Positions 13,717 to 28,831 of a DNA stretch of 64,000 nt are shown one piece after another. The number at the start of each line of letters is the position of its first letter. Positions within the stretch are counted from its first letter, which is position 1. The DNA is from Nitrospirota bacterium (GTDB taxonomy: Bacteria > Nitrospirota > Thermodesulfovibrionia > Thermodesulfovibrionales > Dissulfurispiraceae): assembly GCA_963790025.1 (NCBI GenBank), contig CAWBMP010000004.1, forward strand, positions 640,001 through 704,000. Direction: 5' to 3'. The position numbers were made by a program, and so were the translations under genes. The notes below the pieces were generated by a model. The model ran no database searches. It saw only the letters and a list, made by a program, of their open reading frames with translations, and was not told where the DNA came from.

Positions 13717-14895
13717 CTAAAATATAATAACTGAGATAAGGGCTGCTACAAGCACAACGTAGAGAATATCGACTTTTCTCACAAGTGCGGCAAGGGATCC
13801 ACATGCTAATAATATCCGGAGAATATCCCATGGAACAGCCATAGCGAACTGTATGGTCACGAAGAAAAGAAGCCCTACAAAGGAAGCGAGTATACCCTTT
13901 GTTGCCCTGAGAAAGTAAGCGGAATTCTTCAGCTTGTCCATTACGGGTGTAAAGGAGATCACCATAAGAAAAGATGGGGTAAATATGGCAACAGTGGCGA
14001 CAACAGCGCCTGCTATTCCATGAATTAAGTAGCCAACAAAGGTTGATGTGATAACTATGGGGCCTGGCGTGACCTGTCCGAGAGCTATCCCATCCATGAA
14101 GGTCTTGCTGTCCATCCATCGCCTTGCATCAACCACCTCATGAAGCATCAGTGGTACGGAAGCAAAGCCGCCGCCAAAGGCGAAGAGATCAATCCTCATC
14201 ATCAACACGGCGAGACTAAAGATTTTTGTATCTATGAGATAAATCATGAGAAGCCCTAGAAGCAAAATCAAGAGAAGCACAGAGAGTTGTTTTCCACTAT
14301 GCCTGTCTGTTTCCCTTTCACCGGATGATGCAGGAATAATGCCCTTGCCACTCAGAAATACAATGCCAGCTAAGGCGGCCCCCAAAATGACAATAAAGGG
14401 GCTTACTCCGGCCCACAGAACGACGGCGGCCGCTAAGGTAAGAAGGATGTCTTTGAAATTCTTAAACGTGCTTTTGCCGAAGGAATATGTCGCATTTGCA
14501 ACGATGGCAACCACGACAACCTGTAGGCCTTTAAACAGTGAGACAATCATGGAAACTGCATGATACCTGGCATAGAGCGAGGAAAGTATCAGCATCAAAA
14601 TAAATGCAGGCAGACCGAAGCCGACAAACGATGCCAATGCGCCTACGATACCCCTTGCCCTAAGACCCACATATGCAGCGGTCTGCATTGCGGTGGCTCC
14701 CGGTATTGTTTGGCAGAGTGCGACCCCATCCTTAAATTTTTCTCCGTCAAGCCACTTGTGACGCATTACAGCCATTTCTTTTATGTACGCAACCATTGCA
14801 GGACCGCCGAAGGCGGTCAGCCCGAGCTTTAAGAAGGAAAAGAATAGTTTCAATGGTGTAGGGCGCGTATTAATAAGTCCTCTATTTTTCTTCAA
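13717..14895 (-). CDS. chrA: Long-chain chromate efflux transporter
   Basis: Two repeats: AFGGP...QTIPG and AFGGG...QVTPGP. Confidence 0.9.
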   Translation of the reverse strand: MKKNRGLINTRPTPLKLFFSFLKLGLTAFGGPAMVAYIKEMAVMRHKWLDGEKFKDGVALCQTIPGATAMQTAAYVGLRARGIVGALASFVGFGLPAFILMLILSSLYARYHAVSMIVSLFKGLQVVVVAIVANATYSFGKSTFKNFKDILLTLAAAVVLWAGVSPFIVILGAALAGIVFLSGKGIIPASSGERETDRHSGKQLSVLLLILLLGLLMIYLIDTKIFSLAVLMMRIDLFAFGGGFASVPLMLHEVVDARRWMDSKTFMDGIALGQVTPGPIVITSTFVGYLIHGIAGAVVATVAIFTPSFLMVISFTPVMDKLKNSAYFLRATKGILASFVGLLFFVTIQFAMAVPWDILRILLACGSLAALVRKVDILYVVLVAALISVIIF

Positions 14896-15538
14896 CGATC
14901 CTCCCGTTTTGCATAATCAGATTCTTGTCCGCCAGTCTTCCAGCTTGTTTTTTATCATGTGTGGTGATCACAACAGTTGTATTATGTTCTTTTTTCAGCT
15001 TCATGACTATGTTTTCTATAATATCCGTATTGGCCTGATCTACAGATGCAGTTGGCTCATCAAGAAAAAGAATTTCAGGTTTTATGACCAGCGCCCTTGC
15101 TATGTTAAGGCGCTGTGTTTCACCGCTTGAAAGGGTCAAGGCGTTTTGATCACTTTTATAGCCCAGACCGACAAACTCAAGGGCCTCCCGAACCTTTACC
15201 CTCGCCTGCGCACCTTTAATTCCTCTGATTGTCAAACCATAGGTGATATTTCGAAATACCGTAGTGTTGAAAACACCGGAACGGGAAAAGACCATGGTGA
15301 TCTTGCGCCTCAATGACAAGTCCTTAACTGCCGTGCTGTCTTGAGAGAAGAATAAGATATCACCGCTGTCAGGCGGCTCTATTAGAGCACAGATTCTCAG
15401 AAATGTAGATTTGCCGCAGCCGTTCGGTCCTGTTAAGACATAAATGCCGCTCCCGTCAAAAGAGAATGAGCATTCTTTCAGCACACAGCTTCCGTTATAG
15501 CTCTTCCCGATATTTAATGCTGCAAATGTAAGGCTCAC
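14882..15538 (-). CDS. tupC: Tungstate ABC transporter ATPase
   Basis: GPNGCGKS, LSSGE, LDEPT; operon context. Confidence 0.8.
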   Translation of the reverse strand: MSLTFAALNIGKSYNGSCVLKECSFSFDGSGIYVLTGPNGCGKSTFLRICALIEPPDSGDILFFSQDSTAVKDLSLRRKITMVFSRSGVFNTTVFRNITYGLTIRGIKGAQARVKVREALEFVGLGYKSDQNALTLSSGETQRLNIARALVIKPEILFLDEPTASVDQANTDIIENIVMKLKKEHNTTVVITTHDKKQAGRLADKNLIMQNGRIVEEK

Positions 15539-16242
15539 CTTTTTGCCCCACTGATGCCCCTCTTCTGAATAAAATACAGGGCTGAATTTATTGCAAGAGA
15601 AATTGACAAGAGTATTATGCCGAGCGCAAGTGCAAGCTCGAAATTCCCTTTGTCCGTTTCCATTGCTATGGTCGTCGTCATCACTCTGGTAAAGCTTGCG
15701 ATATTGCCGCCGACAATTAGTATTGCTCCGACTTCGGCCATAACCCTACCAAAAGCTGCCATTATCGCCGACATTATTCCGTAGCGGGCCTCTCTTATTA
15801 CAGTCATCGAAACCTGGAAACGGGTCGCGCCGAGCGTCATCGCAGTTTGCTTAATGATGGGATCAACACTCACAATAGCCGAATGACTTAGAGATGAGAC
15901 AATAGGGAAGGAAAGGACGCTCTGGGCAATAATCATGGCGGAAGGGGTATAGAGCAGAGACATAAAACCCAGAGGGCCGTTCCTCGATAATAAAAGGTAT
16001 ATGAACAGTCCAACAACAACCGGAGGCAGTCCCATAAAGGTGTTTAAAATGCTTATGCTCAAACCCCTTAACGGGAATTTTCTGAATGCAAGAAGAGCGC
16101 TAAGTGGAAGGCCGATAAAGGTAGCGCAAAGAAGCGCGGAACCGGATACCCTGATAGACAGAAATATGATTCCGAGAAGTTCTTTATCGAGATTCAGAAT
16201 GAGAAAAAGCGCTCTTGTAAAACTCTCCAATATTGAACTCAT
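15535..16242 (-). CDS. tupB: Tungstate ABC transporter permease
   Basis: MGLPPVVVGL, FGRVMAEVGA, GGNI...TRVMTT. Confidence 0.88.
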   Translation of the reverse strand: MSSILESFTRALFLILNLDKELLGIIFLSIRVSGSALLCATFIGLPLSALLAFRKFPLRGLSISILNTFMGLPPVVVGLFIYLLLSRNGPLGFMSLLYTPSAMIIAQSVLSFPIVSSLSHSAIVSVDPIIKQTAMTLGATRFQVSMTVIREARYGIMSAIMAAFGRVMAEVGAILIVGGNIASFTRVMTTTIAMETDKGNFELALALGIILLSISLAINSALYFIQKRGISGAKR

Positions 16243-16266
16243 AAACTATATCCTGTCCTAATTCAT

Positions 16267-17088
16267 TTATTTTGCATTAGGTATGAAAAGTTGATTCCCG
16301 TTTTTATCTTTGAACGATGCAATGGCCTGTTGTCCTTCTTTTGATATCAGCCAGTTTACAAACTCCATTGCCTCCTTATATTTCACGTGCTTAAATTTTT
16401 GAGGATTTACCGCCATAACTCCATACTGATTAAATAGTGAAGGGTCACCTTCGAGGACGCTTATCATTGCAAGCTTATCTTTATCCTTTGTGGCCAGCCA
16501 AGTCCCCCTGTCTGTCAGTGTATAAGCACGTTTTTCGTTTGCTATTCTCTGGGCCTTTTCCATCCCTTGTCCAACCTCGATATACCATTTCTGACATTTG
16601 GGCTCGATGCCAGTCTTTTTCCATATTGATAATTCCTTCGTATTTGTGCCTGAATTATCTCCTCTTGAAACGAACAGAGAAGAACCGGCTATTTTCTTAA
16701 ATGCATCCGTGACAGACTTCATGCCCTTTATTTTTCCAGGGTCGTTATCAGGTCCTATAACAATAAAGTCGTTATACATCACATCATGGCGATTCACAAA
16801 AAAACCCTCTTCAACAGCCTTTAGCTCCTGCTCCTTCGCATGGACAAAGGCCACGTCAGCATCTCCTCTTTTGCCCATTTCTATAGCCGCGCCTGTTCCG
16901 CGTGCGACAACCTTCACCTTAATGCCTGTTTTCTTCTCGAACATCGGTAGTATGTAAGCAAATAAGCCGGAATTCTCTGTGCTTGTCGTTGAAGAACAGA
17001 TTATCTCTGTGGAAGCAGAAACATATATCGGGCTGCAGATAATTGCACATAATACTATAAACAAACAAAGATTTACTTTCTTGAACAT
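16267..17088 (-). CDS. tupA: Tungstate ABC transporter substrate-binding protein
   Basis: TTSTENSGL, GTGAA, MYNDF, SRGDNSGT. Confidence 0.9.
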   Translation of the reverse strand: MFKKVNLCLFIVLCAIICSPIYVSASTEIICSSTTSTENSGLFAYILPMFEKKTGIKVKVVARGTGAAIEMGKRGDADVAFVHAKEQELKAVEEGFFVNRHDVMYNDFIVIGPDNDPGKIKGMKSVTDAFKKIAGSSLFVSRGDNSGTNTKELSIWKKTGIEPKCQKWYIEVGQGMEKAQRIANEKRAYTLTDRGTWLATKDKDKLAMISVLEGDPSLFNQYGVMAVNPQKFKHVKYKEAMEFVNWLISKEGQQAIASFKDKNGNQLFIPNAK

Positions 17089-17104
17089 ATCTCATCCTCC
17101 AAAG

Positions 17105-17473
17105 TTATTTTGCCTTGACAACAAGAACTGCCGTTTCAGAATGGCCGATCACCCTTTCTGTCACGCTCCCCATGCGCAGCCTTTGGATGCCCGTCCTGCC
17201 ATGACTACCGACAATAATCAGATCCTGCATGCTTTTCTCTTCCTTCATGGATGCAAAATGTTTCGCCGCCTCCTCTTCCTCTTGCTCGATGACCTGAGGC
17301 ATGGTCATTTCGAACTCGAGGTTCATCTTGATAACTGATACTGCAATGAGCATACTCGAACACCGCCTGGAGATACTCAAGGCTTCCCTTATCGCTCCAT
17401 CGCTCAACTTCGAGCCGTCTGTTGCCAAAAGAAGCTTTCCCGATTTATCAAACAGACAAATCTGGCTGTTCAT
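17105..17473 (-). CDS. Universal stress protein, apparently internally shortened
   Basis: LLATDGS and [12 protein letters not shown]...GSVTERVI; central segment shorter than in the neighbouring USP. Confidence 0.7.
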
Positions 17474-17544
17474 AGTATCCTCCCTCTGTTCTTAGATTCG
17501 GTTTATTACGTAGAACGAATGAAGGAACCTCAACACGAAGTGTA

Positions 17545-18060
17545 TCATAATAACAATGCCCCGATAATCCCCGCTCCGATTATCACAAAAGAAGGCTCTG
17601 TTTTTGTGAAGGCAATCACGGCAAAGCTGATTATTCCGATTCCGAAAGTAAGCGGGTCTACAAGCGCTGTTTTCCCCAGCGAAAGAGCCACTGCAGCCAA
17701 TAGTCCTATGACAGCAGGTTTTATTCCTTTGAAACCAGACTGGACAATTATCGATTGTTTATAGTCGTAATAGTACTTGGCGACAATCGTTACGATGATG
17801 ATGCAAGGCAAATATGAACTGACCATCGCCAATACGGCACCGACCAGTCCGCCGATTTTGTATCCTATAACCGCATTCATAACAGTCAGGGGACCGGGGG
17901 TTAACTGCCCGATTGCTATAGCATCCAGGAATTCTTGTTTGGTCAACCAATGATATTTTCTCACGAACTCTGCCTGAAGCATAGGCAGCATCACAAAGCC
18001 GCCCCCTATGGTCAGCGCATTAATGACGATCAGTGTCCAGCAAAGTTTTAGTAAAATCAT
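17545..18060 (-). CDS. Short-chain chromate transporter subunit
   Basis: TIGGG, GQLTPGP. Confidence 0.88.
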   Translation of the reverse strand: MILLKLCWTLIVINALTIGGGFVMLPMLQAEFVRKYHWLTKQEFLDAIAIGQLTPGPLTVMNAVIGYKIGGLVGAVLAMVSSYLPCIIIVTIVAKYYYDYKQSIIVQSGFKGIKPAVIGLLAAVALSLGKTALVDPLTFGIGIISFAVIAFTKTEPSFVIIGAGIIGALLL

Positions 18061-18602
18061 CGTGCCCCCCTTCGATATACGATAAGGCCGATAATTCCTG
18101 ATGCCAGGATAAGGCCGATGGGATTCATCCTGAATATTGCTAGTGCGAAAAAAGCGGTAACAGCAAATAACCCTGACTTGTAATCCTTTATGGTGGTCTT
18201 TGCCATCTTGAAAATGATGGAAAGAAGCAAACCTACAACCGCAGCTCCCACTCCTTTCATGGCCGAAGTCAACGTAACATTGCCCTTGCTTTTTATGTAG
18301 AAGATCGCGAGAAGTACAGCAAGAACAGTCCCCGTAAATGACTGTCCGACGGTTGTGGCGAGAGCGCCTTTTATCCGTCTCAACTTGTACCCTATACAGA
18401 TACCGGTATTTACTATGGGCGGACCCGGCGTCATCTGTCCTATTGCGACACTCTCGACAAACTCTTCATGGGTAAGCCATTTTCCCTTATCCACAAGTTC
18501 CCTTTCAAAAAAAGCGAGCATCGAATAAACGCCACCAAAAGAGAAGGAACCTATTTTGAGGAACTTCCAGAAAATAGCTTTTACGGTTATCTTATCTTCC
18601 AT
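18057..18602 (-). CDS. Short-chain chromate transporter subunit
   Basis: SFGG, GQMTPGP; GGAGG SD before ATG 18602. Confidence 0.88.
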   Translation of the reverse strand: MEDKITVKAIFWKFLKIGSFSFGGVYSMLAFFERELVDKGKWLTHEEFVESVAIGQMTPGPPIVNTGICIGYKLRRIKGALATTVGQSFTGTVLAVLLAIFYIKSKGNVTLTSAMKGVGAAVVGLLLSIIFKMAKTTIKDYKSGLFAVTAFFALAIFRMNPIGLILASGIIGLIVYRRGAR

Positions 18603-18678
18603 TCTTGCCTCCAAAACTGTATTTTCTCTTTTCCAGAACCTGAACCATAATATCCGTTGTCCTTTGAATGAATAAAAA

Positions 18679-19530
18679 CTATTGAGACTTCACTACCAAC
18701 ACTGCGCATCCTGCGAGTCCGATGACTTTTTCAGTCGAACTGCCCATGAGCATCTTTTCGAGCCCTGTTTTGCCGTATGCGCCCATAACAATCAAATCCA
18801 CCCCCCTGCCTCCCGCAGTCTCGGCAATCACTTCGTATGGCCTGCCCACCGGAGTTAATGTCTCTACAGGCATACTCTCTCGTTGTGCCAGTACAGCAAC
18901 CTTGTTAACATTCGATTCGGCATCTTCTAATTCGCTTTCAGTGCGACATACTGAGACAGCGATGATATTGCTGCTACAGTTCTTTGCGATATTTATAGCT
19001 TCCTTGGCTGCTGCTTCAGCGTGCTTTGACCCATCGGTTGCAACCAGCAGATTCTTGTATCCTATTTTTGCCGCCTTCGGGACAACCAAAACTTTGCATT
19101 GCGCGTGCCCGATAACTTGCGCAGCCAATTCACCCGAAAGGATCTTCGCCAGTCCTTTGTGCCCACGTCTCCCAATGATTATCATGTCGATCTGCCTATC
19201 AGCAGCTTCATCAATGATCATTTGATAATAGGGTTCAGGTCCTTCACAGAAGATGTCCTCGCATGACGGAAGCCCTTCCTGCACAGCCCTTGCTTCTACA
19301 GATTCAAGGTGTCTGAGTATTTCGGCTTTCCCTTTTCTTGCAATATCAATGTCTATGGTCTCACTTTCGGGGCTCATTACAAGCATTAACGAAATTACAT
19401 GGAGTTTACTCGAACACCTCTTGGCAAGACTTATTGCCTCCAGTATCGCTCCTTCACTGAAAAGTGACCCGTCTGTTACAAGCATCAGTCGATCATTACT
19501 TGATATAGGATTTGCCTCGGAACCGTTCAT
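18679..19530 (-). CDS. Tandem-domain universal stress protein
   Basis: Two USP domains (VTDGS...GRRG; ATDGS...GAYG...GSSTEKV); AGGAGG SD before ATG 19530. Confidence 0.88.
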   Translation of the reverse strand: MNGSEANPISSNDRLMLVTDGSLFSEGAILEAISLAKRCSSKLHVISLMLVMSPESETIDIDIARKGKAEILRHLESVEARAVQEGLPSCEDIFCEGPEPYYQMIIDEAADRQIDMIIIGRRGHKGLAKILSGELAAQVIGHAQCKVLVVPKAAKIGYKNLLVATDGSKHAEAAAKEAINIAKNCSSNIIAVSVCRTESELEDAESNVNKVAVLAQRESMPVETLTPVGRPYEVIAETAGGRGVDLIVMGAYGKTGLEKMLMGSSTEKVIGLAGCAVLVVKSQ

Positions 19531-19726
19531 ATATCCTCCTTGTAGCGCCTTAATGCTTTGTAAATATTGCCGGCTAACCTTTTCCACCCTTGCCGGGTAA
19601 GACTTGCATTTCAACTATCACGAATGTTATAATATTGGTGTTAGTATAGCGAGATTATTGGTGGATGTCAAGTGGGGGGGGAGGACTTGCATAATTTCCG
19701 TGTTTGTGCGGAAATGGAGGAGAGAG

Positions 19727-20821
19727 ATGAAACCTAAAAATACGTTAACCGAAACGTCGTCGATGCCGCGTGGCGTGGGGCATAGCCGCATTGTGTCAGT
19801 ACCTGATGACAGGCAGTATCTGGACTCAGTCGGGCTCAACCGGTTGGAGCAGTCATTCCGGGAATGGGTCGAGGCAACATCTCGCCCGGATGTGCGTTTG
19901 TCGCGCAGGCGCGTTTTGCTCATTTTCTTGTTGATCCGCTATACCGGGGCCAAGTTGAATGAAGTGCTGGCGCTCGATCCTTTCCGGGACATCGATAAAG
20001 ACCGGCAATCCGTAGTTTTCCGAAATGCGGATAGCAACACCGGACAGAAGGTCCGGGAAGTCCCGATATCCGAAGACTTTTCGGTCGAACTCCGCTCCAT
20101 GTTTGCCGACCCCGAGTTCAAAAAAACCATTAAAGATTGCTTTGTTGTGGATCCCGGCTTTATACGGCTAAAATTCTATGAGCGCGCTTTGGCGTGCGGC
20201 TTCCCCAAAGAAATAGGGGGCCCGGAAATGATCCGCAAGGCCCGTGGCGTGGAGCTGATGCAGGGCAACATGCCCTTGCCGGCGGTCCAAATGCTCCTGG
20301 GGCATTCGACGCCCAACCTGACCTCTTCCTATGTTTCATTCTCCGAAGACGAGATTCGACAGGTGACGAAGCATTTTGTGGAAAAGGAGTCCTCCCGGAA
20401 AACCAGTGCGCGAAACACTTTTTTCGGCAAGATTATAACTTTGCAGCGCGGTGACATACAAACCCTAGTGGAACTATCGACGATTGAAGGCCATCGGGTC
20501 ACTACAGTGATCACCAACGATAGCGTGGGACGGCTCGGATTGAAACAAGGACAGATGATCACAGCCGAAGTAAAAGCACCGTTTGTCATCGTTCAGAAAA
20601 CGGATGAGGAGCCCAAATCCAGTGCGGAAAACAGATTCAGGGGGACTGTCGAACAAGTCAATATTGGTAAAATCAACACTGAATTCGTAGTCAGCATTTC
20701 AGACGAAAGCAGACTTTGCTCCATCATCACAACACAGAGTGGACGACAACTGAACCTTAAGAAAGGTGACAAGGTTTGGGCACTGTTCAATAGTTTTGCC
20801 GTCGTGCTGCATGTTGATTGA
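19727..20821 (+). CDS. tunR: TunR-like tungstate/molybdate-responsive regulator (tyrosine-recombinase-like domain plus two TOBE domains)
   Basis: RYTGAKLNEV, EMIRKAR, LLGHS...TSSY followed by TSARNTF and SSAENRF TOBE repeats; divergent from the tup operon. Confidence 0.8.
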   Translation: MKPKNTLTETSSMPRGVGHSRIVSVPDDRQYLDSVGLNRLEQSFREWVEATSRPDVRLSRRRVLLIFLLIRYTGAKLNEVLALDPFRDIDKDRQSVVFRNADSNTGQKVREVPISEDFSVELRSMFADPEFKKTIKDCFVVDPGFIRLKFYERALACGFPKEIGGPEMIRKARGVELMQGNMPLPAVQMLLGHSTPNLTSSYVSFSEDEIRQVTKHFVEKESSRKTSARNTFFGKIITLQRGDIQTLVELSTIEGHRVTTVITNDSVGRLGLKQGQMITAEVKAPFVIVQKTDEEPKSSAENRFRGTVEQVNIGKINTEFVVSISDESRLCSIITTQSGRQLNLKKGDKVWALFNSFAVVLHVD

Positions 20822-21218
20822 ACCGAAGGCTTTCAACTATTCCGGTTTCTTGTCGATTACATAACGCCGCTTGGGGGCCTCTCCTCCACATATTCCGTAT
20901 TTCCCCATTACAGTTTACAGCAACAATACAAGATGCTATGCGGCGAATGCTACAAAATGCCTATCCTATGAGCGACGTAACTGCACCTTTAAAATGTTGC
21001 AAATCCGGCAGCTCGATCTCGATAGGTATCTGCGTCAAATTAAAGAAGGCGGCAACTTCCTCGTCAGATAACGGATATATACCGGCATCGAATGGAAATG
21101 TTCTTGGAGTTGTAGCAAAATAGCAGCTAATCCTGCCTTGTCAAGATTTAGGCAGTTAGAAAAATCCTGATTATTTTTACCTGACGCCTTCATTTGTTAT
21201 GTTTTTATATAAAAGAAA

Positions 21219-21908
21219 TCATGATTTGTGTTTCTCTGCAACTTTCTTTCTGATCTCCTCCATCTTCTTCGAGAAATCCTCTTTTTGTCTTCGCTCTGTT
21301 TCATCCTTGGGCTCGAAAACAGGGTTAGTCACTTTCCATGTGAGCTGGGCGCTGATCGGACTTTCAGGATATGCTCCGATATCGTAAAGCGTCTGCCCAT
21401 CGAACAGAGTTGGCGTTTCCTGATAACAGGAACATACGGCCTTTCTTAGGAGATCAGGGGTACCGCGGTTGAGCAGATCGATGACTGAAACTATCTGTTT
21501 TCTGAAACGCTCGACAAATTCAATAGGGAGGTTGAAGAGATACGGCGTAGGCGCCGTGGTGTTCCTGATTCTCTTGCGCTCATCAACGCCGTCTTTCAAC
21601 AGTGACTTTATGGCTTCACCCGTCGAATGACCCGGGGACTCGGGTCCAGTCAGCACAAGATAGCGGATATTTGGATTGCCTATGATATTGCAGATCATCT
21701 TTTCGATGCCGATGTTTTCGGTCTGTATCGTCCCCGATATCGCAGAGCCAGCCTCGACGCCGGTTCTGACGAGCAGTTCTATGTCCTTCGGAATTTTGTC
21801 TTCGTCATAGATCAGTATAACCGCGACAGCTACAGGAGAATAATCGTTTCCTCTTAGATATCGGCCTTCTTCAGTCGGATAATCGGGTGACGGCTTAACC
21901 TTGAGCAT
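21219..21908 (-). CDS. MtrA-like corrinoid protein (tetrahydromethanopterin S-methyltransferase subunit A family)
   Basis: SPVAV, GTIQTENIGIEKMICNIIGNPNIRYLVLTGPESPGHSTG, VERFRKQI. Confidence 0.85.
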   Translation of the reverse strand: MLKVKPSPDYPTEEGRYLRGNDYSPVAVAVILIYDEDKIPKDIELLVRTGVEAGSAISGTIQTENIGIEKMICNIIGNPNIRYLVLTGPESPGHSTGEAIKSLLKDGVDERKRIRNTTAPTPYLFNLPIEFVERFRKQIVSVIDLLNRGTPDLLRKAVCSCYQETPTLFDGQTLYDIGAYPESPISAQLTWKVTNPVFEPKDETERRQKEDFSKKMEEIRKKVAEKHKS

Positions 21909-21963
21909 ACAATTCTCCCTTTATTGGTTGCGAATGAGGTCTAACATCGACCTCTTTAACGCG

Positions 21964-22257
21964 TCAACAACAGCCGCCATTTTCAGAGTCGCCGCAACCA
22001 CAGGACGGTTCTCCGCCTGTAATCATGCTCCTGATAAGTGCCGAGGCGCATCCAACGCCAGCTTCGACTTCCAACGCTCCAAATTCACAGTTATTGGCGC
22101 AAGCGCCGCATTCCATGCAACGGTCGATGTCGATGACGCGCACCTTCTTACCGTTCTTCTCAAAGACAGCATGCGGGCAGACTTCAATACAAGTCCCGCA
22201 GCCCGTGCATTTTTCTGCGGAGAAAACCAAACTCACTACGTTCGATAGATATTTCAT
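21964..22257 (-). CDS. hgcB: Mercury methylation ferredoxin HgcB
   Basis: CTGCGTCIEVCP, CMECGACANNC, GVGCA, terminal CC; ATGA overlap with hgcA. Confidence 0.95.
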   Translation of the reverse strand: MKYLSNVVSLVFSAEKCTGCGTCIEVCPHAVFEKNGKKVRVIDIDRCMECGACANNCEFGALEVEAGVGCASALIRSMITGGEPSCGCGDSENGGCC

Positions 22258-23312
22258 ACAATCCCCCATTCATTAAGCTTATACACTAAAACAAGTAGAA
22301 GTGATACTATCACTGATCCTATGTAAAAAGGCATCGCTATCCGCAACTCTTTTTTAACCCCTGACATGCCTGTAAATGTTGTTGAGCCGGTGAATTGAAG
22401 CGCTACATATGAGCTAGCGGCAGGGAAGAAGAGACACGCGGCTCCAAAAAGGACCCATGCATGTATAAAGTAAGACCTTAGAATATGCCCTGTAATTACG
22501 ACTGAAAGTGCACCCGTTATCCATCCCTTTATCGCAAAAGACCTGAATGGAACAAATGGGAGCATGACAGGGGTAATTAAAGCGCCGCTCAAGACCGCAA
22601 TGAATCCAATAAGCAAGAACGGCATTCCACCTGACCACGCCTTGCTGAATATGATGCCTGAAGGAGTAAGCCCGAACAAAACCAGCATGGTCAGAGCAAA
22701 AAGAGGATAATTCTTCATAGCTGGAATGATCTCCATAGGAGTAAGAATGAGTCTATCCCAAACCGGAAACTTTACTAAACTCATTTCATCAGTCTTCCGG
22801 TATCCGGCGCTGAGATATGCCGGTATGTCCTTGGCGTTTACAGGTCCGAAATGCACTTTAAATCCGGTCACCTTATGTACCTCCCTCGCATTCACTCCGG
22901 GAGCGCAAAGCTGGGGCGCTATAATCCTCTTGTGATCCACAACATCCTGTAGCCGCGCCTCACGAATCCTCTTTACCAATTCATTCGTGCCAAACGTCCC
23001 TTTTCCGGCAGCACACCAGACATTGATTCCTTTAGTGTCCAAAACAAGTATCCACGCATTCAGTCCCTTCAAACTTCTGCGGAGTATGTCGAAACTCAAT
23101 TTGTAATTGGCGCTTGCGAACACGTCCGAATCCCTGCCCGGTTCTCCGAGGGCATAGAGTCCAGGTTTGACTATGTAGCTCATCCGCAACCCGCTGATTC
23201 TGCATTTCACCTGTCCCCAAATATCGGAATGTGACCACTCTGATGATGTTTTTGATATTTCTGGTTGCTTATCAGGACAACAGAGAGGGATTATGGCAAG
23301 CTTGTTCTGCAT
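22254..23312 (-). CDS. hgcA: Mercury methylation corrinoid protein HgcA
   Basis: ANYKLSFD, cap-helix GINVWCAAGKGTFG, C-terminal TM helices, FTGSTTFT. Confidence 0.96.
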   Translation of the reverse strand: MQNKLAIIPLCCPDKQPEISKTSSEWSHSDIWGQVKCRISGLRMSYIVKPGLYALGEPGRDSDVFASANYKLSFDILRRSLKGLNAWILVLDTKGINVWCAAGKGTFGTNELVKRIREARLQDVVDHKRIIAPQLCAPGVNAREVHKVTGFKVHFGPVNAKDIPAYLSAGYRKTDEMSLVKFPVWDRLILTPMEIIPAMKNYPLFALTMLVLFGLTPSGIIFSKAWSGGMPFLLIGFIAVLSGALITPVMLPFVPFRSFAIKGWITGALSVVITGHILRSYFIHAWVLFGAACLFFPAASSYVALQFTGSTTFTGMSGVKKELRIAMPFYIGSVIVSLLLVLVYKLNEWGIV

Positions 23313-23313
23313 T

Positions 23314-24699
23314 TTACCGGGCCTCCCTGCGCCTATCGTCGGATAGACGGATTTCTCTATTCCACGACTGGGCGGCCATTTGCACAGGGTCCCAGGGGCT
23401 GGAGAGTGGCGGTGTATAGCTGAGATCCAGGTCGTTCAATGCCTCCACGGGCATCCCATTATGAACTGCAGCAGCCACCGTGTCGATACGCTTAGAAACC
23501 TCTGTGCCATAAGTGCCGATGATCTGCATGCCCAGAAGTTTGCGTGTTTTTTTATCGCCTGTGATGCGAATTCGCAATTTTTCCGCGTGGGGATAATAGA
23601 ACTTATGGTCCCAAGTGTCAATATCCACAGACAAGGGAGAAAACCCTTCTTTCAGGGCTTCATCGTCTTTCAGGCCTGTCCGTGCAGCAACAAGATTGAA
23701 AATCTTAACGGATTGGGTTCCCAAGGTACCGGTATATTCTCGATTGCCGCCTACTGCGTTTTCACCGGCTACGCGACCCTGTTTATGAGCAGTAGTGCCC
23801 AAGGGCAGGTATGTGTTTTTCCCAAGCAGCCGGTGAAAGGTTTCCACACAGTCTCCCGCTGCATAAATATCAGGAATGGAGCTCTCCATTCGCCGATTGA
23901 CGCAAATCGCGCCCTTAACGCCGGTTGCGATACCCGCAGATTGGGCCAGACGGGTTTCCGGTCGGCTGCCTACAGCCACGAGAACCATATCGGCAGTAAT
24001 AGCATCTCTAGCTGAGCGCACAGAAAGCGAACGTCCAGTGGATTCGATCTGTTTCACACTAAATTCGTTGAACACCTGAACACCATTTTTTTCCAATTCC
24101 GTCCGCACGATGCTACCCAAGGCAGGATCAAAAGTTGTTAGAACGGAAGGTGCAAATTCGACTACTGAAACGGAGAGACCTCGTAGCTTCATGGCATCGG
24201 CCATTTCCATACCGATATAACCTGCACCGATAATGACGATAGAGGCAGGACTACGAGCAGTGAGGTATTCCTGAAACGCAAAACTGTCTGCCATCCATCT
24301 AAGAAAAAAGACGCCGGGAAGATCGATGCCGGGAAGATTCGGTATAAGAGATTTGCCTCCGGTACCTATAACAAGCCTGTCGTAAGAAAACGTCTTGATA
24401 TGGCCTCCAGTATCAGTAGCAACTATTTGTTTTCGGTCAGAAATGATGGATGTGACACGATGCTGTGTCACAACTTTGACCCCTTCTTTTTCAATTTCAT
24501 CAGCGGTGCGATGAGCTAATGCTTTCCAGTCTGGAACCTCACCACTCAGATAAAACGGAAGACCGCAGATACTGAAATTAGGATATTGGTCTGCCAGGAT
24601 CATGGTGACTTCTGTATTGGGCTCCAATTCTTTGACTCGAAGGCCTGCGCTGATTCCGGCATCACTGCCGCCGATAATTACTATTTTTTCAGGTTTCAT
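23314..24699 (-). CDS. CoA-disulfide reductase / NADH oxidase-family flavoprotein
   Basis: GGSDAG, NFSICGLP, GAGYIG, AAGDC, DLSYTPP. Confidence 0.88.
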   Translation of the reverse strand: MKPEKIVIIGGSDAGISAGLRVKELEPNTEVTMILADQYPNFSICGLPFYLSGEVPDWKALAHRTADEIEKEGVKVVTQHRVTSIISDRKQIVATDTGGHIKTFSYDRLVIGTGGKSLIPNLPGIDLPGVFFLRWMADSFAFQEYLTARSPASIVIIGAGYIGMEMADAMKLRGLSVSVVEFAPSVLTTFDPALGSIVRTELEKNGVQVFNEFSVKQIESTGRSLSVRSARDAITADMVLVAVGSRPETRLAQSAGIATGVKGAICVNRRMESSIPDIYAAGDCVETFHRLLGKNTYLPLGTTAHKQGRVAGENAVGGNREYTGTLGTQSVKIFNLVAARTGLKDDEALKEGFSPLSVDIDTWDHKFYYPHAEKLRIRITGDKKTRKLLGMQIIGTYGTEVSKRIDTVAAAVHNGMPVEALNDLDLSYTPPLSSPWDPVQMAAQSWNREIRLSDDRRREAR

Positions 24700-24776
24700 A
24701 TTGTGTCTCCTGAGATCTTTTTTATCTTGAAGAAGATTATATCCGCGATAATGCCTCCAAGGACTTCGAGCCTCAT
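24696..24776 (-). pseudogene. 26-codon mini-ORF, probable deletion scar (small thioredoxin-like start joined to another gene's end)
   Basis: AGGAGA SD, MRLEVLG-GIIADIIFFKIKKISGDTI*; TGA overlaps the next ATG. Confidence 0.5.
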
Positions 24777-24804
24777 AACTATCTCCTATGAAATAATATA
24801 TTTA

Positions 24805-25875
24805 TTATTCAATACTCGTATTTTTTATTCTGCAATATTCGACGGTAAAATATTTTTTCTGGAAACGTAGTGCGACATTTACAAGTCCAATCAGTACCGG
24901 CACTTCCACAAGGGGACCTATAACGGCTGCAAAGGCCGCTCCGGAGTTAATACCGAATACTGCCACGGCAACGGCTATGGCGAGCTCGAAATTATTGCTT
25001 GCAGCAGTAAAGGACAGAGTTGCCGTTTTTGCGTAATCGGTGCCGATTTCTCTGCCCATGTAGAATGAAACCAGAAACATGACTACGAAATAAATCAGCA
25101 GAGGTATCGCTATACGAATTACATCCAGGGGGAGCTTGACGATATAATTCCCCTTCAGGGAAAACATAATAACAATTGTAAAAAGGAGAAAGATAAGTGT
25201 AACAGGACTGATTTTAGGTATAAATACCTGCTCATACCATTGACGACTCTTTAGCTTCAGAAGACTGAAACGGGTTATCATTCCTGCTATGAAAGGAATC
25301 CCAAGATAGATGAAAACGCTTTCCGCTATCTGCCCTATCGTCACTTTCACAACAACACCTTTGAGTCCGAACCACGCCGGGAGAATAGTTATGAATATAT
25401 AGGCATACACCGAGTAGAAAAGCACCTGAAAGATAGAATTAAATGCAACAAGTCCGGCAGCATATTCGGGATCACCGCAGGCAAGATCATTCCATACTAT
25501 AACCATGGCAATGCAACGGGCCAACCCTATCATTATGAGTCCGACCATATATCCCGGATAGTCATGCAAAAAAATAATTGCCAAAAAAAACATTAATATA
25601 GGACCAATGATCCAATTCTGAATAAGGGACAACCCAAGTACCTTTTTGTTCTTGAAGACTTCACCCAGTTCCTCATATTTGACCTTTGCAAGAGGAGGGT
25701 ACATCATGAGTATAAGACCAATAGCAATCGGTATATTGGTGGTCCCGACCTGAAAGCTGTTTATCAGGCCCTCCACTCTGGGCATAAAATAGCCTAGACC
25801 CACACCCAGCGCCATGGCGGAAAATATCCACAAGGTGAGATAGCGGTCAAGAAAAGAGAGCTTCTTATTTTCCAT
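24805..25875 (-). CDS. acr3: Arsenite efflux transporter Acr3
   Basis: [46 protein letters not shown]. Confidence 0.96.
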
Positions 25876-26305
25876 ACTGTTCTTCCTCTTTAAGCCAGTG
25901 CTCTATGCGAGACTTGATCTGGTCCCTTATTATTCGCGCGCCCTTCAGTCGTTCCTCATGGGTCCCCTTGAGTTCGGCAGGATCTTCAAAAGGCCAGTTA
26001 AGCCGCTTTACTACACCCGGGAAGATAGGGCACTGTTCAGCGTTTGCATCATCACAAACAGATATCACATAGTTATAGAGCTTTCCAGCCTTATAGAAAT
26101 CAAATGCGCTCTTTACCTTATTGTTAGATATGTCATACCCTGATTCTTTCATCACTTCAACAATCAGGGGATTCAATGTGCCAGGGGTTAGCCCTGCGCT
26201 TTCGGCAACAAATCTGTCACACGCCAGCTCATTCAAAAATGCCTCGGCCATTTGACTACGTGCCGTGTTATGAACGCACACAAATAAGACTCTGGTCTTT
26301 TTCAT
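25865..26305 (-). CDS. arsC: Arsenate reductase (LMW-PTPase type)
   Basis: [16 protein letters not shown]...CP, FEDP. Confidence 0.92.
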
Positions 26306-26339
26306 TTTCTTCCTCCTCCCAACGGCAGCGGGTTAACTT

Positions 26340-26681
26340 CTATGCGCAGCAGAGCCCATTTTTAGTTTTGGCGAATTCATTCAATCGTCTCTGGTCTTCC
26401 CCGACCGATTCAGAGGAGATTTTTTCCAAAACAGAGATAATCAAAAATCTCTTGAACATATCCGAATCATGGATACTGTAATGAATCCACTTCCCCTGTC
26501 TTCTGTCCTTGATCAGTCCCGCGTCTTTCAGGATTTTGAGGTGGAAAGATACCTTGGGCTGGACCATATCGAGTGCGGCAACAATATCGCATACGCAAAG
26601 TTCTCCATTTTCGAGGAGCTTTAGTGTTCGGAGCCTTGTCTCATCAGAGAGGGCCTTAAAAACAGTAACCAAATCGTTCAT
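26340..26681 (-). CDS. arsR: ArsR-family repressor
   Basis: FKALSDETRL, ELCVCD, VSFHL, terminal CC. Confidence 0.93.
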   Translation of the reverse strand: MNDLVTVFKALSDETRLRTLKLLENGELCVCDIVAALDMVQPKVSFHLKILKDAGLIKDRRQGKWIHYSIHDSDMFKRFLIISVLEKISSESVGEDQRRLNEFAKTKNGLCCA

Positions 26682-26696
26682 TGTGCTTTAACCCTC

Positions 26697-27047
26697 CTAA
26701 AAAACTATTTTTTCAGCTGCATTGCTGATTGCCGCACTGGTCACTTCTGTCTTTCCCTTTTTATATCCAAAATCCTCAAGCATATAAGATTTTGGCGTGA
26801 ATCCCGCATTTTCAAGCACCTTCTTCGCACACAAAGACGGGCATCCATCAATAGTGACAGTCGTCGCCGCTTTTACCGGGGCTATCTTTTCAGGTATGTT
26901 GGCTCCGACAGCTGCCATGCAGTACATCTTCCCTTTTCCGTCTTTAGACAGTTTTCTTGCCACCTGATCAGATAACGCCCCTACATCTGCGGCCCCAGAA
27001 CACGAGAAAATGAGTATCTTCTCCTTACCGCATGCATTTTCTGACAT
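26697..27047 (-). CDS. DGC-domain putative zinc-binding protein
   Basis: SCSGAADVG, MYCMA, IDGCPSLCA. Confidence 0.85.
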   Translation of the reverse strand: MSENACGKEKILIFSCSGAADVGALSDQVARKLSKDGKGKMYCMAAVGANIPEKIAPVKAATTVTIDGCPSLCAKKVLENAGFTPKSYMLEDFGYKKGKTEVTSAAISNAAEKIVF

Positions 27048-27069
27048 ATGAACCTCCTTCTTGAGCAGT

Positions 27070-27123
27070 CATATCAAATTATCTTTATGTGTTAAATTTA
27101 CCTTTTATTATTTTTTTTGTCAA
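27070..27123 (-). promoter_or_regulatory. Sigma70 promoter and putative ArsR operator of the ars-hgc operon
   Basis: TTGACA (27123-27118)-17-TAAATT (27100-27095); imperfect palindrome CATATCAA-N6-TTTATGTG at 27070-27091. Confidence 0.65.
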
Positions 27124-27274
27124 GTGCAATCATAAACAGGTTTGATTTTCTCTATCATCAGGAAATAATAGCAGTTGACAAATATAAATAAGTATATATA
27201 AACTTTCTGCTAAAAGGTGTTCAAGAGGCATATCCGACCTGATGCCGCGCATCAGGTATAGAGGAGGCTAAATA

Positions 27275-27355
27275 ATGTCATTGGAAAGCGCTCAGCAATT
27301 CGTGTCAAGGATGAAATCGGACAAGAACTTCAGAGCTAAGGACAGTAGAGGGTAA
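27275..27355 (+). pseudogene. Truncated Nif11-like leader-peptide gene
   Basis: GAGGAGG SD; MSLESAQQFVSRMKSDKNFRAK resembles Nif11-type leaders, then stops at the junction with the integrase fragment. Confidence 0.6.
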
Positions 27356-27599
27356 AAAGCCAGATGATTGGATATTCACACTAAAAGGTCAACCGTATGG
27401 TTGCAACTGCCTTTATAGGGCATGGAAGAAAGCCTGTAAAAATGCGAGGGTGAAGCATATATCGCTTCAACAGGCATCGAGACATAGCACAGCATCGAGA
27501 ATTATGAAAAAGGCCAAGGATGAAGCCCTGAAACGCATACAGGCACGGCTAGGTCATAAAAACAAGTCAACTGGAAAGAAGCACTACGTCATAGAATGA
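27345..27599 (+). pseudogene. C-terminal fragment of a phage-type tyrosine integrase
   Basis: WIF...AWKKACKNARVKHISLQQASRHSTAS...IQARLGHKNKSTGKKHY*; no start; ends 88 nt from the tRNA 3' end. Confidence 0.8.
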
Positions 27600-27687
27600 A
27601 ATTTCACCGAACAGCTACCGAACGTAAAACCAGGCTCAAAAAGCACTAATATTTAGAAAAAGTCAAATAAAACAAGGAAAAAAAGAA

Positions 27688-27762
27688 TCGGGGCGAGCCG
27701 ATTCGAACGGCCGACCTCTCGCACCCCAAGCGAGTGCGCTATCCAGGCTGCGCTACGCCCCG
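27688..27762 (-). tRNA. tRNA-Pro(GGG)
   Basis: CGGGGCGTAGCGCAGCCTGGATAGCGCA-CTCGC-TTGGGGT-GCGAG-AGGTCGGCCGTTCGAATCGGCTCGCCCCGA; CCA not encoded. Confidence 0.95.
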
Positions 27763-28187
27763 AAATGATGATGGAGTATTTCTTTTAGTCTCGATTTTAC
27801 CATGGCAAGAATCTTTTCAGCGTCTGCAGAAACTCCGGCGTTTACTTCGGCATCATCCGTGCAACTTTTCGCATCCAGCTGTTCCGCACCACTGCCAAGC
27901 TTTCGCCTGACGCCGTCAATAGTATATTTTTCCTCATATAAAAGATGCTTGATCTTCTTTATAAGGTCGACATCGTTCTTTGCATATATCCTTTGCCCTG
28001 TCTTGCCCTTCCTCGGATTAAGGAAAGAAAACTCTGTCTCCCAGTACCGCAGCACATAGGCTTCAACGCCTACAAGCCTGCTGACCTCTCCTATTTTATA
28101 AAAGATTTTATCTGGAAAAAGTTTGAGCGGCTCGGGCGACCCATACTTATCCTGCATCATCAGCTCACTGCGAGTGTTTTCCGGCAA
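27753..28187 (-). CDS. MerR-family HTH regulator (ihfA-linked)
   Basis: YKIGEVS...VLRYWETEF...YTIDG. Confidence 0.9.
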   Translation of the reverse strand: MPENTRSELMMQDKYGSPEPLKLFPDKIFYKIGEVSRLVGVEAYVLRYWETEFSFLNPRKGKTGQRIYAKNDVDLIKKIKHLLYEEKYTIDGVRRKLGSGAEQLDAKSCTDDAEVNAGVSADAEKILAMVKSRLKEILHHHFGA

Positions 28188-28195
28188 CGGCTTGC

Positions 28196-28477
28196 CTAAA
28201 GCTGTTTTTCAACAGCTTCTTTAAGCTGATCGCTCGATTTGAAAGTTACGACCTTGCGCGGGGTTATCTCTACCTCTTCCTTCGTTTTCGGGTTTCTCCC
28301 TATGCGGGAATTCTTCTTGCGGACATTAAACGTGCCGAAACCCGAAACCTTAATGGATTCCCCCGCTATCAATGTCTGCTTAATGGAATCGAAAACAATT
28401 TCGACTATATTTTGTGCCTCGTTTCTCGGAAGTCCGACCTTGTCAAACACAAAATTTACGATATCAGCTTTTGTCAT
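28196..28477 (-). CDS. ihfA: Integration host factor alpha subunit
   Basis: MTKADI, SGFGTF, GRNPKT; ihfA-merR-tRNA-Pro order. Confidence 0.9.
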   Translation of the reverse strand: MTKADIVNFVFDKVGLPRNEAQNIVEIVFDSIKQTLIAGESIKVSGFGTFNVRKKNSRIGRNPKTKEEVEITPRKVVTFKSSDQLKEAVEKQL

Positions 28478-28831
28478 TTTCTTACCTCACATTTCTTATT
28501 CAGTTCTGAAATGGATACCATCCTCTACTGATAAGGACTATACGGTCATTAATTTTATATTACTGCATTGCCTAATTGTCAAGTATTTTCAAATGATTGT
28601 TTAAAAAAAGAACAGCATCAGCCGCATCCTTATATAAAGCTTACATGATCCGCATAGCTTGTCAATACGTAAAACAGGCAAAGGGCGAATGGCCAACTGT
28701 TTAAAGCCGTTTTATTGTTTGACCTTTTGCCTTTGGCCCGCATGTTCACGTTTGACTACTGTTTGATATTTCTGTTATTCTTCTGAGATAACTTTACAAT
28801 GTCTATATTCTTTAGACAAAGAGGATAGCAC

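Follow-up and report, generated by a model that had tools for sequence, protein, structure and literature searches.

The locus analysed here raises a simple question: why does a gene for a homologue of MtrA, the cobamide-binding subunit of the methanogen MtrA-H complex, stand directly behind the mercury-methylation genes hgcA and hgcB of a bacterium? The stretch examined, hereafter the window, comprises 64,000 nucleotides (nt) from a Nitrospirota bacterium of the Dissulfurispiraceae (GenBank assembly GCA_963790025.1, contig CAWBMP010000004.1, positions 640,001 to 704,000 of the forward strand), and coordinates given below without a locus label are positions within it. We favour, with moderate confidence, the reading that the MtrA-like gene would encode a His-on cobamide protein with an accessory place in the ars operons of anaerobes rather than a dedicated component of HgcAB, that the gene points to a step in arsenic handling which depends on B12 and is so far undescribed, and that its place beside hgcB would reflect a local rearrangement inside an ars island.

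The genes hgcAB are described as often flanked by acr3, arsC, arsM and arsR in the available text of McDaniel 2020 (PMC7438021) and are placed in the ArsR regulon of P. mercurii in that of the Gionfriddo 2022 preprint, and the mechanism of anaerobic dimethylarsenate demethylation is stated as unclear in the accessible part of Chen 2023 (PMC10579292). A literature search that left supplements aside found no report of an MtrA-like gene in an hgcAB or ars-operon context, and the available parts of these three papers and of a review (PMC13262295) mention none. The locus bears on the native role of HgcAB, and on how arsenic may be methylated or demethylated in anaerobes without ArsM or the oxygen-dependent lyase ArsI. 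A cobamide protein that is strongly conserved, horizontally spread and encoded in ars operons makes a concrete candidate for arsenic chemistry that depends on B12, and the window operon, which unites the MtrA-like gene with HgcAB and ArsR, offers an unusually compact gene set for testing whether HgcAB and B12 chemistry serve arsenic.

The ars-hgc unit of the window

The MtrA-like gene is the last of eight genes that form one tightly packed unit on the minus strand. From first to last, with protein lengths in amino acids (aa) and model scores in brackets, the unit reads as follows.

26697..27047, minus strand: DGC-domain protein of 116 aa, which opens the unit (PF08859, 93.4 bits)
26340..26681, minus strand: ArsR-family repressor, 113 aa, with the motif ELCVCD (PF01022, 66.8 bits)
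25865..26305, minus strand: thioredoxin-coupled arsenate reductase ArsC, low-molecular-weight phosphatase type, 146 aa (PF01451, 54.2 bits)
24805..25875, minus strand: ACR3 arsenite efflux permease, 356 aa (TIGR00832, 465.8 bits against a cut-off of 282.8)
23314..24699, minus strand: pyridine-nucleotide disulfide oxidoreductase, coenzyme A (CoA)-disulfide reductase-like, 461 aa (PF07992, 190.6 bits)
22254..23312, minus strand: HgcA, the corrinoid protein of mercury methylation, 352 aa (NF040863, 393.1 bits against a cut-off of 275)
21964..22269, minus strand: HgcB, 2x[4Fe-4S] ferredoxin, 101 aa (NF040864, 119.3 bits against a cut-off of 99)
21909..21963, minus strand: spacer of 55 nt from the hgcB stop to the MtrA-like ATG, with a GGGAG ribosome site (from the reading-frame coordinates)
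21219..21908, minus strand: soluble MtrA-like protein of 229 aa, predicted to carry a cobamide His-on, which closes the unit (PF04208, 132.3 bits against a cut-off of 25)

The intergenic gaps are, in the same order, 15, 34, −11, 105, 1, −16 and 55 nt, the 16-nt overlap being that of hgcA with hgcB. A consensus scan found no terminator-like site inside the unit, the 55-nt spacer included, and the MtrA-like gene and hgcB are probably co-transcribed. A hairpin in the spacer was considered and rejected, its fold being no better than that of shuffled sequences (z = −1.1). The HgcA and HgcB genes adjoin one another, both score above their equivalog cut-offs, and HgcA carries the cap-helix motif N97-V-W-C100-A-A-G-K-G105, invariant in 27 HgcA sequences, whose cysteine we take to be the cobalt ligand; HgcB ends in GGCC. 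The cysteine pair of the ArsR motif is presumably the arsenite site. Among the remaining members, ArsC stays under the cut-off of TIGR02691 (104.3 against 174.3 bits), and the disulfide reductase, 92% identical to the gene 3′ of the MtrA-like gene in the same-genus genome G322, stays below those of the CoA-disulfide reductase model TIGR03385 (373.4 against 578.8) and of the MerA model (155.9 against 454). Reductases of this type recur near hgcAB or the MtrA-like gene, 3′ of the MtrA-like gene in G322, 3′ of hgcB in genome G288, and at locus L089.

Linkage to arsenic genes

Same-strand core ars genes lie at most a few open reading frames (ORFs) from the MtrA-like gene in the window, where ArsR, ArsC and ACR3 are all upstream, and the same holds for its relatives. 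Gene orders obtained by tblastn of the window proteins place the MtrA-like gene directly 3′ of ACR3 or ArsR in the same-family genomes G322, G364, G344, G288, G354 and G392. The order is hgcA-hgcB ... DGC-ArsR-ArsC-ACR3-MtrA-like-reductase in G322 and hgcAB ... DGC-ArsR-MtrA-like in G364; G344 has DGC-ArsR-ACR3-MtrA-like on one contig (C4) and hgcAB by a second ars set on another; G288 has ArsR/ACR3-MtrA-like and then, after about 4 kb, ArsC-hgcAB-reductase; and G354 and G392, neither with an HgcA over the cut-off, have ArsR-ACR3-MtrA-like. The MtrA-like gene of G322 (L032:6954-7638) matches as two pieces in different frames (188 and 40 aa), either a frameshift or an assembly error.

A scan of the genomes of 185,579 species returned 338 stretches; 319 of these could be confirmed, and the neighbourhood counts that follow use the best 80. 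These loci, at 58-88% identity, come from about a dozen phyla, and their range takes in Nitrospirota, Acidobacteriota, Desulfobacterota, Planctomycetota, Verrucomicrobiota, Lentisphaerota, Aerophobota, Chloroflexota, Spirochaetota, Bacillota, Fraserbacteria and Bipolaricaulota as well as Methanosarcina. An MtrA-like ORF was called in 76 of the 80; the other four loci are L060, L079, L084 and L092, three of which have ars matches by tblastn. Neighbouring proteins were clustered by blastp and cluster representatives were named via Pfam and NCBIfam.

A core ars gene lies on the same strand within five ORFs in 40 of the 76 loci, within three in 39 and directly adjacent in 28. By gene, within five ORFs, the counts are 28 for ACR3, 24 for ArsR, 20 for ArsP, 17 for ArsM (the cluster scoring 297.6 bits on NF008823 against a cut-off of 263), 11 for ArsC and three for ArsD. 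The enrichment falls off with distance: of the 391 ORFs at three positions or fewer from the MtrA-like gene 87 are core ars genes, as against 10 of 295 at seven or more. Since they are mostly upstream, the MtrA-like gene usually occupies a distal place in the operon. Its further recurrent neighbours include an ArsE-family thioredoxin (TIGR00412, upstream), an ArsF-family protein, a flavin mononucleotide (FMN) reductase, DGC proteins, which also recur next to ars genes in the related loci, and a downstream pair of a thioredoxin followed by a CcdA/DsbD_TM membrane protein.

Phylogeny of the MtrA-like clade

A quick tree of 99 rows was followed by a careful tree of 94, from which five long or gappy rows had been removed; MtrA-like ORFs shorter than 200 aa are in neither. 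The MtrA-like clade stands apart from archaeal-type MtrA by a branch with support 100/100. The window falls within a Nitrospirota group of 11 rows (support 100/100), nine of them ars-linked, and further ars-linked lineages are a Planctomycetota group of 11 rows (96/99) and an Acidobacteriota group (97/84). A single clade of all ars-linked rows, present in the quick tree with support 84, was not resolved in the careful tree and is not claimed here.

Linkage to hgcAB and a probable rearrangement at the window

In a sample of 401 genomes from the window's phylum, HgcA exceeded its cut-off in 96 and PF04208 matched in 28, and the two occurred together in seven of the 96 (G000, G322, G288, G344, G364, G378 and, as a fragment, G191), the other 89 HgcA-positive genomes having no PF04208 match at all. 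The distance from hgcA to the MtrA-like gene is 4.0 kb in G322, 2.6 kb in G364 and 5.0 kb in G288, and the two are on separate contigs in G344, G378 and G191; within the window's own family, four of the six genomes with HgcA and a full-length MtrA-like gene keep both within 6 kb. The ~1.5-kb flanks of 30 other best HgcA loci held no MtrA-like gene (0/30). A second sample, of 301 genomes centred on a Desulfobacterales genome in another phylum, gave PF04208 matches in 13, three of which also have HgcA, ~498 kb away or on other contigs, and none of the three is linked; on one further complete chromosome the two genes are ~3.4 Mb apart. Among the best 80 loci HgcA is present in four, three being G-labelled relatives already listed, and never adjoins the MtrA-like gene. 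At the Lentisphaerae locus L095 hgcAB is ~5 kb away.

The direct hgcB/MtrA-like junction is seen in the window only. In all linked cases besides the window, an ars block separates hgcAB from the MtrA-like gene, which itself adjoins ACR3, ArsR or ArsC. The recurrent linkage expected of a third HgcAB component is thus absent from these samples, and the earlier suggestion of a soluble methyl-corrinoid partner or chaperone for HgcA fails the linkage check that had been set for it. Of the other suggestion, an uncharacterised As/Hg methyl-transfer pathway, the arsenic side fits, since the conserved neighbours are ars genes; methyl transfer itself is a proposal drawn from sequence.

Comparison with G322 suggests how the junction may have arisen. 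By blastn, the block holding the MtrA-like gene (21211-21952) is 84% identical between the two genomes, the reductase 91%, ACR3-ArsC-ArsR 83% and DGC 82%, whereas hgcB-hgcA is only 65% identical, and the order of the blocks differs. At the protein level HgcA is 62% identical and the flanking ars genes 81-92%. By these comparisons the window hgcAB is not the positional counterpart of the hgcAB of G322. The spacer's last ~45 nt, which contain the ribosome site, are homologous to the leader between ACR3 and the MtrA-like gene in G322, which implies either that the MtrA-like gene moved together with its leader or that hgcAB and the reductase were inserted before it. The adjacency of the MtrA-like gene and hgcB would accordingly belong to the local history of this ars island, as we proposed at the outset with moderate confidence.

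We also note two genomes of the same family (L012:1441-2490, plus strand; L030:1480-2529, minus strand) in which codon 12 of HgcA is a TGA in frame (ISC-TGA-PSG); the window HgcA reads Cys-Cys at this place (PLCCPD), and the TGA may encode selenocysteine.

The MtrA-like protein and its predicted cobalamin site

The MtrA-like protein belongs to the MtrA superfamily (PF04208) and, within it, to the soluble subfamily NF002126, whose cut-off of 161 it passes with 176.6 bits; true MtrA is excluded, the score against the equivalog model TIGR01111 being 126.8 bits against a cut-off of 249.15. Across ~170 residues it shares 38-40% identity with the solved MtrA proteins 5LAA, 8Q3V, 5L8X and 9QTQ, with E-values of 1.3e-33 for 5LAA, 8.3e-32 for 8Q3V and 7e-28 for 5L8X, and for this locus the E-values of 1e-33 to 1e-118 exclude chance matches. 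The description given in the sequence-only reading is confirmed throughout: the coordinates and the scores against NF040863, NF040864 and PF04208 bear out hgcA-hgcB followed 55 nt on by an MtrA homologue; the ExxGH motif is retained as E90-S-P-G-H94, aligned to the EVQGH of solved MtrA proteins; the PF04208 match is the only one in the window's 98.8%-complete genome, in which the two other mtr subunits searched, MtrH (PF02007) and MtrC (PF04211), have no match; and there is no membrane helix, C-terminal or other, the highest 19-residue Kyte-Doolittle mean being 0.92 and the tail from 175 to 229 averaging −1.34.

A structure model built from 24 close homologues was poor (mean predicted local distance difference test score, pLDDT, 53.1), and a model from a 58-sequence alignment was used instead (pLDDT 89.1, predicted template-modelling score 0.82). 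Foldseek matched it to 5l8x_A with an E-value of 1e-17, a target-normalised template-modelling (TM) score of 0.93 and a root-mean-square deviation of 1.7, and to 5laa_B with a TM score of 0.94. The PDB matches below an E-value of 0.001 are MtrA only, namely seven chains of 5L8X, 5LAA, 9QTS and 9QTR, the next match having an E-value of 0.013; six of these chains have target-normalised TM scores of 0.91-0.94 and the 225-residue chain 9qts_A has 0.65.

The available text of Wagner 2016 (PMC4915002) gives ten cobalamin contacts for the Methanothermus fervidus MtrA homologue. By sequence alignment, seven of them are identical in the window protein (Tyr18 to Y17, Thr53 to T63, Glu54 to E64, Asn55 to N65, Gly57 to G67, Asn64 to N74 and His84 to H94), one is conservative (Val61 to M71) and the other two involve the protein backbone. 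All 24 close homologues have H94 and E64, and conservation of both reaches at least 90% across the 58 sequences. From this conservation we infer that the protein binds a cobamide base-off/His-on via His94. Several features are specific to the clade: an insert of ~11 residues after the first core strand, a cysteine (Cys73, present in every one of the 24 close homologues) at a position held by alanine in archaeal MtrA, the meander motif APTPYLFN in place of the archaeal GAIPF/YxEN, and a conserved C-terminal extension (~167-200), modelled confidently and followed by a charged helix, which at 203-228 is of solvent type in the model.

Two sister representatives carry iron-sulfur modules: P0132 has a 2x[4Fe-4S] ferredoxin domain, 33% identical to HgcB, fused in front of the MtrA-like domain, and P0136 has a PF04060 Fe-S motif fused behind it, both being apparent fusions in single metagenomic gene calls and the sister representatives standing at 50-54% identity. 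These fusions would be consistent with a cobalt that is redox-cycled. Extra modules, long Cys-rich C-terminal extensions among them, are found in the sister representatives P0132, P0136, P0123 and P0126, and many more distant representatives are MtrA fused to a thymidylate-synthase-like domain. An apparent ArsC-MtrA-like fusion, P0158, was rejected as a probable frameshift artefact and left uncounted, its Arg-rich linkers looking out of frame.

Proposed chemistry and alternative explanations

In the mechanism that we propose, the MtrA-like protein would bind its cobamide base-off/His-on, with His94 as the ligand and Glu64 holding it; an Fe-S donor of low potential would reduce the cobamide to Co(I), a part that HgcB could play here and a fused Fe-S module in some relatives; and the reduced protein would then act on arsenicals. 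For the reaction itself we tentatively put first, short of an even chance, a methyl carrier to or from arsenic, which would either methylate As(III) in a B12-dependent way or take methyl groups off methylarsenicals in the absence of oxygen. An unlikelier course would be Co(I)- or thiol-linked reduction of pentavalent organoarsenicals before their export by ArsP or ACR3.

Several observations weigh against an arsenic-linked cobamide protein independent of HgcAB. The MtrA-like gene really does adjoin hgcB, and with probable co-transcription a local functional tie to HgcAB is possible. No same-strand core ars gene lies within five ORFs in 36 of the 76 loci, and the neighbours at ars-less loci (94 proteins from 18 loci) are heterogeneous; the gene calls behind these counts came from a simple longest-ORF picker rather than a trained gene finder. 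A stand-alone subclade of 31 rows (support 100/99), mostly Desulfobacterota with two Methanosarcina, has 27 members without ars context and three with it, so the ars link is not universal for the MtrA-like clade. No MT1/MT2-type methyltransferase or corrinoid activase recurs by the MtrA-like gene, and a methyl-transfer cycle therefore has no identified partners among its neighbours; two RACo-type activases are encoded in the window's genome, both distant from the window. No ArsM exceeds the cut-off in that genome, the best score being 59.8 bits against 263.

The alternative that survives best, unlikely as we judge it, keeps the arsenic link and drops the carrier function: the protein would sequester or protect cobamide under arsenic stress, or act as a thiol- or Co(I)-based reductase together with the surrounding thioredoxin-type genes. 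The recurrent thioredoxin-family neighbours, both the upstream ArsE-family and the downstream pair with CcdA/DsbD_TM, fit such a role, as do the disulfide reductase in the operons of the window and G322, the invariant Cys73 in place of the archaeal alanine, and the lack of a recurrent methyltransferase partner. However, the alignment, read with the available text on the M. fervidus homologue (PMC4915002), puts Cys73 at the position of Ala63, on a helix that lines the nucleotide-tail pocket and away from the open corrin face, and the Fe-S fusions of the sister forms fit a redox-cycled cobalt as in methyl carriers, although they would also suit a Co(I) reductase.

A bolder extension of the arsenic reading, which we think quite unlikely, would make the ArsR-headed operon a self-contained B12 methyl-transfer module, in which HgcA, HgcB and the MtrA-like protein would together methylate As(III) or demethylate methylarsenicals anaerobically, the methylation of mercury would be incidental to the arsenic pathway as a side reaction, and the MtrA-like protein would be an arsenic-dedicated carrier common to the ars operons of hundreds of anaerobic species. 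Such a module is conceivable because no ArsM exceeds the cut-off in the genome.

That the gene is a bystander, a housekeeping corrinoid protein riding on mobile ars islands without a role in arsenic or mercury handling, is in our judgement very unlikely. The stand-alone Desulfobacterota/Methanosarcina subclade does show the family working outside ars operons, but the place of the gene in ars operons, for the most part at a distance of one to three ORFs on the downstream side of core ars genes, is conserved in several well-supported lineages of different phyla, with 58-88% identity across phyla.

A dedicated HgcAB partner, acting as second methyl-corrinoid carrier or cobamide chaperone feeding HgcA with HgcB reducing both, is highly improbable: the terminator-free 55 nt on the same strand, the four of six family genomes within 6 kb, locus L095 and the HgcB-like domain of P0132 speak for it, but 89 of 96 HgcA-positive genomes lack PF04208, none of 30 HgcA loci and none of three second-phylum genomes shows linkage, ~498 kb and ~3.4 Mb separate the two genes on complete chromosomes, an ars block intervenes elsewhere with the gene next to ACR3, ArsR or ArsC, and G354 and G392 keep ArsR-ACR3-MtrA-like without HgcA.

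Comparison with known systems

For the accessory cobamide protein of ars operons that we favour, the closest known counterparts are the cytoplasmic MtrA homologues of methanogens, such as that of M. fervidus (5LAA; available text of PMC4915002), with which the window protein has in common a soluble single-domain Rossmann-type MtrA fold (TM 0.91-0.94), the His ligand with its Glu partner, most cobalamin contacts and the lack of a membrane anchor. It differs from them in sequence, being 38-40% identical to the solved and 28-38% identical to archaeal-type representatives, and its clade differs in the insert, the cysteine for Ala63, the altered meander, the C-terminal extension and the bacterial ars operon setting. 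With MtrA of the Na+-pumping MtrA-H complex, the methyl-tetrahydromethanopterin:coenzyme M methyltransferase (8Q3V, 9QTQ), it shares a homologous cobamide-binding domain, but it has no transmembrane helix and falls below the TIGR01111 cut-off, and the genome gave no match for MtrH or MtrC. The bacterial gene should not be annotated as "tetrahydromethanopterin S-methyltransferase subunit A", nor should it serve as a marker of methanogenesis or mercury methylation.

HgcA and the MtrA-like protein are both corrinoid proteins and share an operon here, yet their folds are unrelated, HgcA matching CdhD (PF03599), and the lower-ligand region is a Cys-bearing cap helix in HgcA whereas the MtrA-like protein has a His ligand. 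HgcA and the acetyl-CoA pathway's corrinoid iron-sulfur proteins alternate between Co(I) and methyl-Co(III) and depend on a ferredoxin or other Fe-S donor, and the MtrA-like protein would resemble them in this. ArsM is an arsenite methyltransferase dependent on S-adenosylmethionine (SAM), a Rossmann protein that carries out arsenic methyl chemistry without a corrinoid. Like the MtrA-like gene, ArsM is an ars-operon gene, and the two occur within five ORFs of one another in 17 of 76 loci; ArsM differs in its dependence on SAM without a corrinoid, and the window's genome has none over the cut-off. Methanogens methylate arsenic via methylcobalamin and MtaA (Thomas et al. 2011, as cited in the available text of review PMC13262295), which the same text treats as a side reaction of methanogenesis enzymes and not arsenic-regulated. 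That route resembles the chemistry proposed here in being a B12-dependent methyl transfer to arsenic in anaerobes, and differs in that the corrinoid gene of the window lies inside an ArsR-headed operon.

Flanking features and minor observations

The unit is bordered by the following features.

27687-27763, minus strand: tRNA-Pro(GGG), directly upstream of the ars-hgc unit
27095..27123, minus strand: promoter-like site, TTGACA, 17 nt, TAAATT, 10 of 12 consensus positions (consensus scan only)
21122..21137, minus strand: weak terminator-like hairpin ~80 nt past the MtrA-like stop, 5 pairs of which 3 are G-C (consensus scan only)
19604-20821, plus strand: 405-aa protein with a weak tyrosine-recombinase domain (PF00589, 27.7 bits) and two TOBE/Mop molybdate-binding domains

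The 640-nt gap between the tRNA-Pro and the DGC gene holds promoter-like sites, and that at 27095..27123 is a candidate start of the eight-gene unit. A strong promoter-like site at 23593-23621, in the 3′ end of the reductase gene, was rejected as a coding-sequence coincidence, since it is also present in G322 without hgcA following. A scan of 20500-28500 against Rfam returned the tRNA-Pro as its only match and no cobalamin riboswitch. No att-like direct repeat was found between the tRNA-Pro and the integrase-like gene (16500 to 28300), and GC content, overall and at third codon positions, showed no foreign block along the locus.

The 405-aa integrase-like gene lies at the far end of the unit and is convergent on the MtrA-like gene; its product may be a molybdate- or tungstate-sensing regulator rather than a recombinase. 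Homologues of this protein (60-67% identical) occur near ars genes in G344 and G354, and a tungstate-type ABC transporter is encoded at 14882-17088 of the window. The phylum also has a second type of bacterial MtrA homologue, of ~390 aa, in which an MtrA domain is joined to PterinBD-DUF4346 (L124:5346-6515 in G019 and L121:2749-3921 in G040), and in G019 its flanks carry an ArsR/MarR-type regulator and a gene for MerT-like mercuric transport (PF02411, 50.6 bits).

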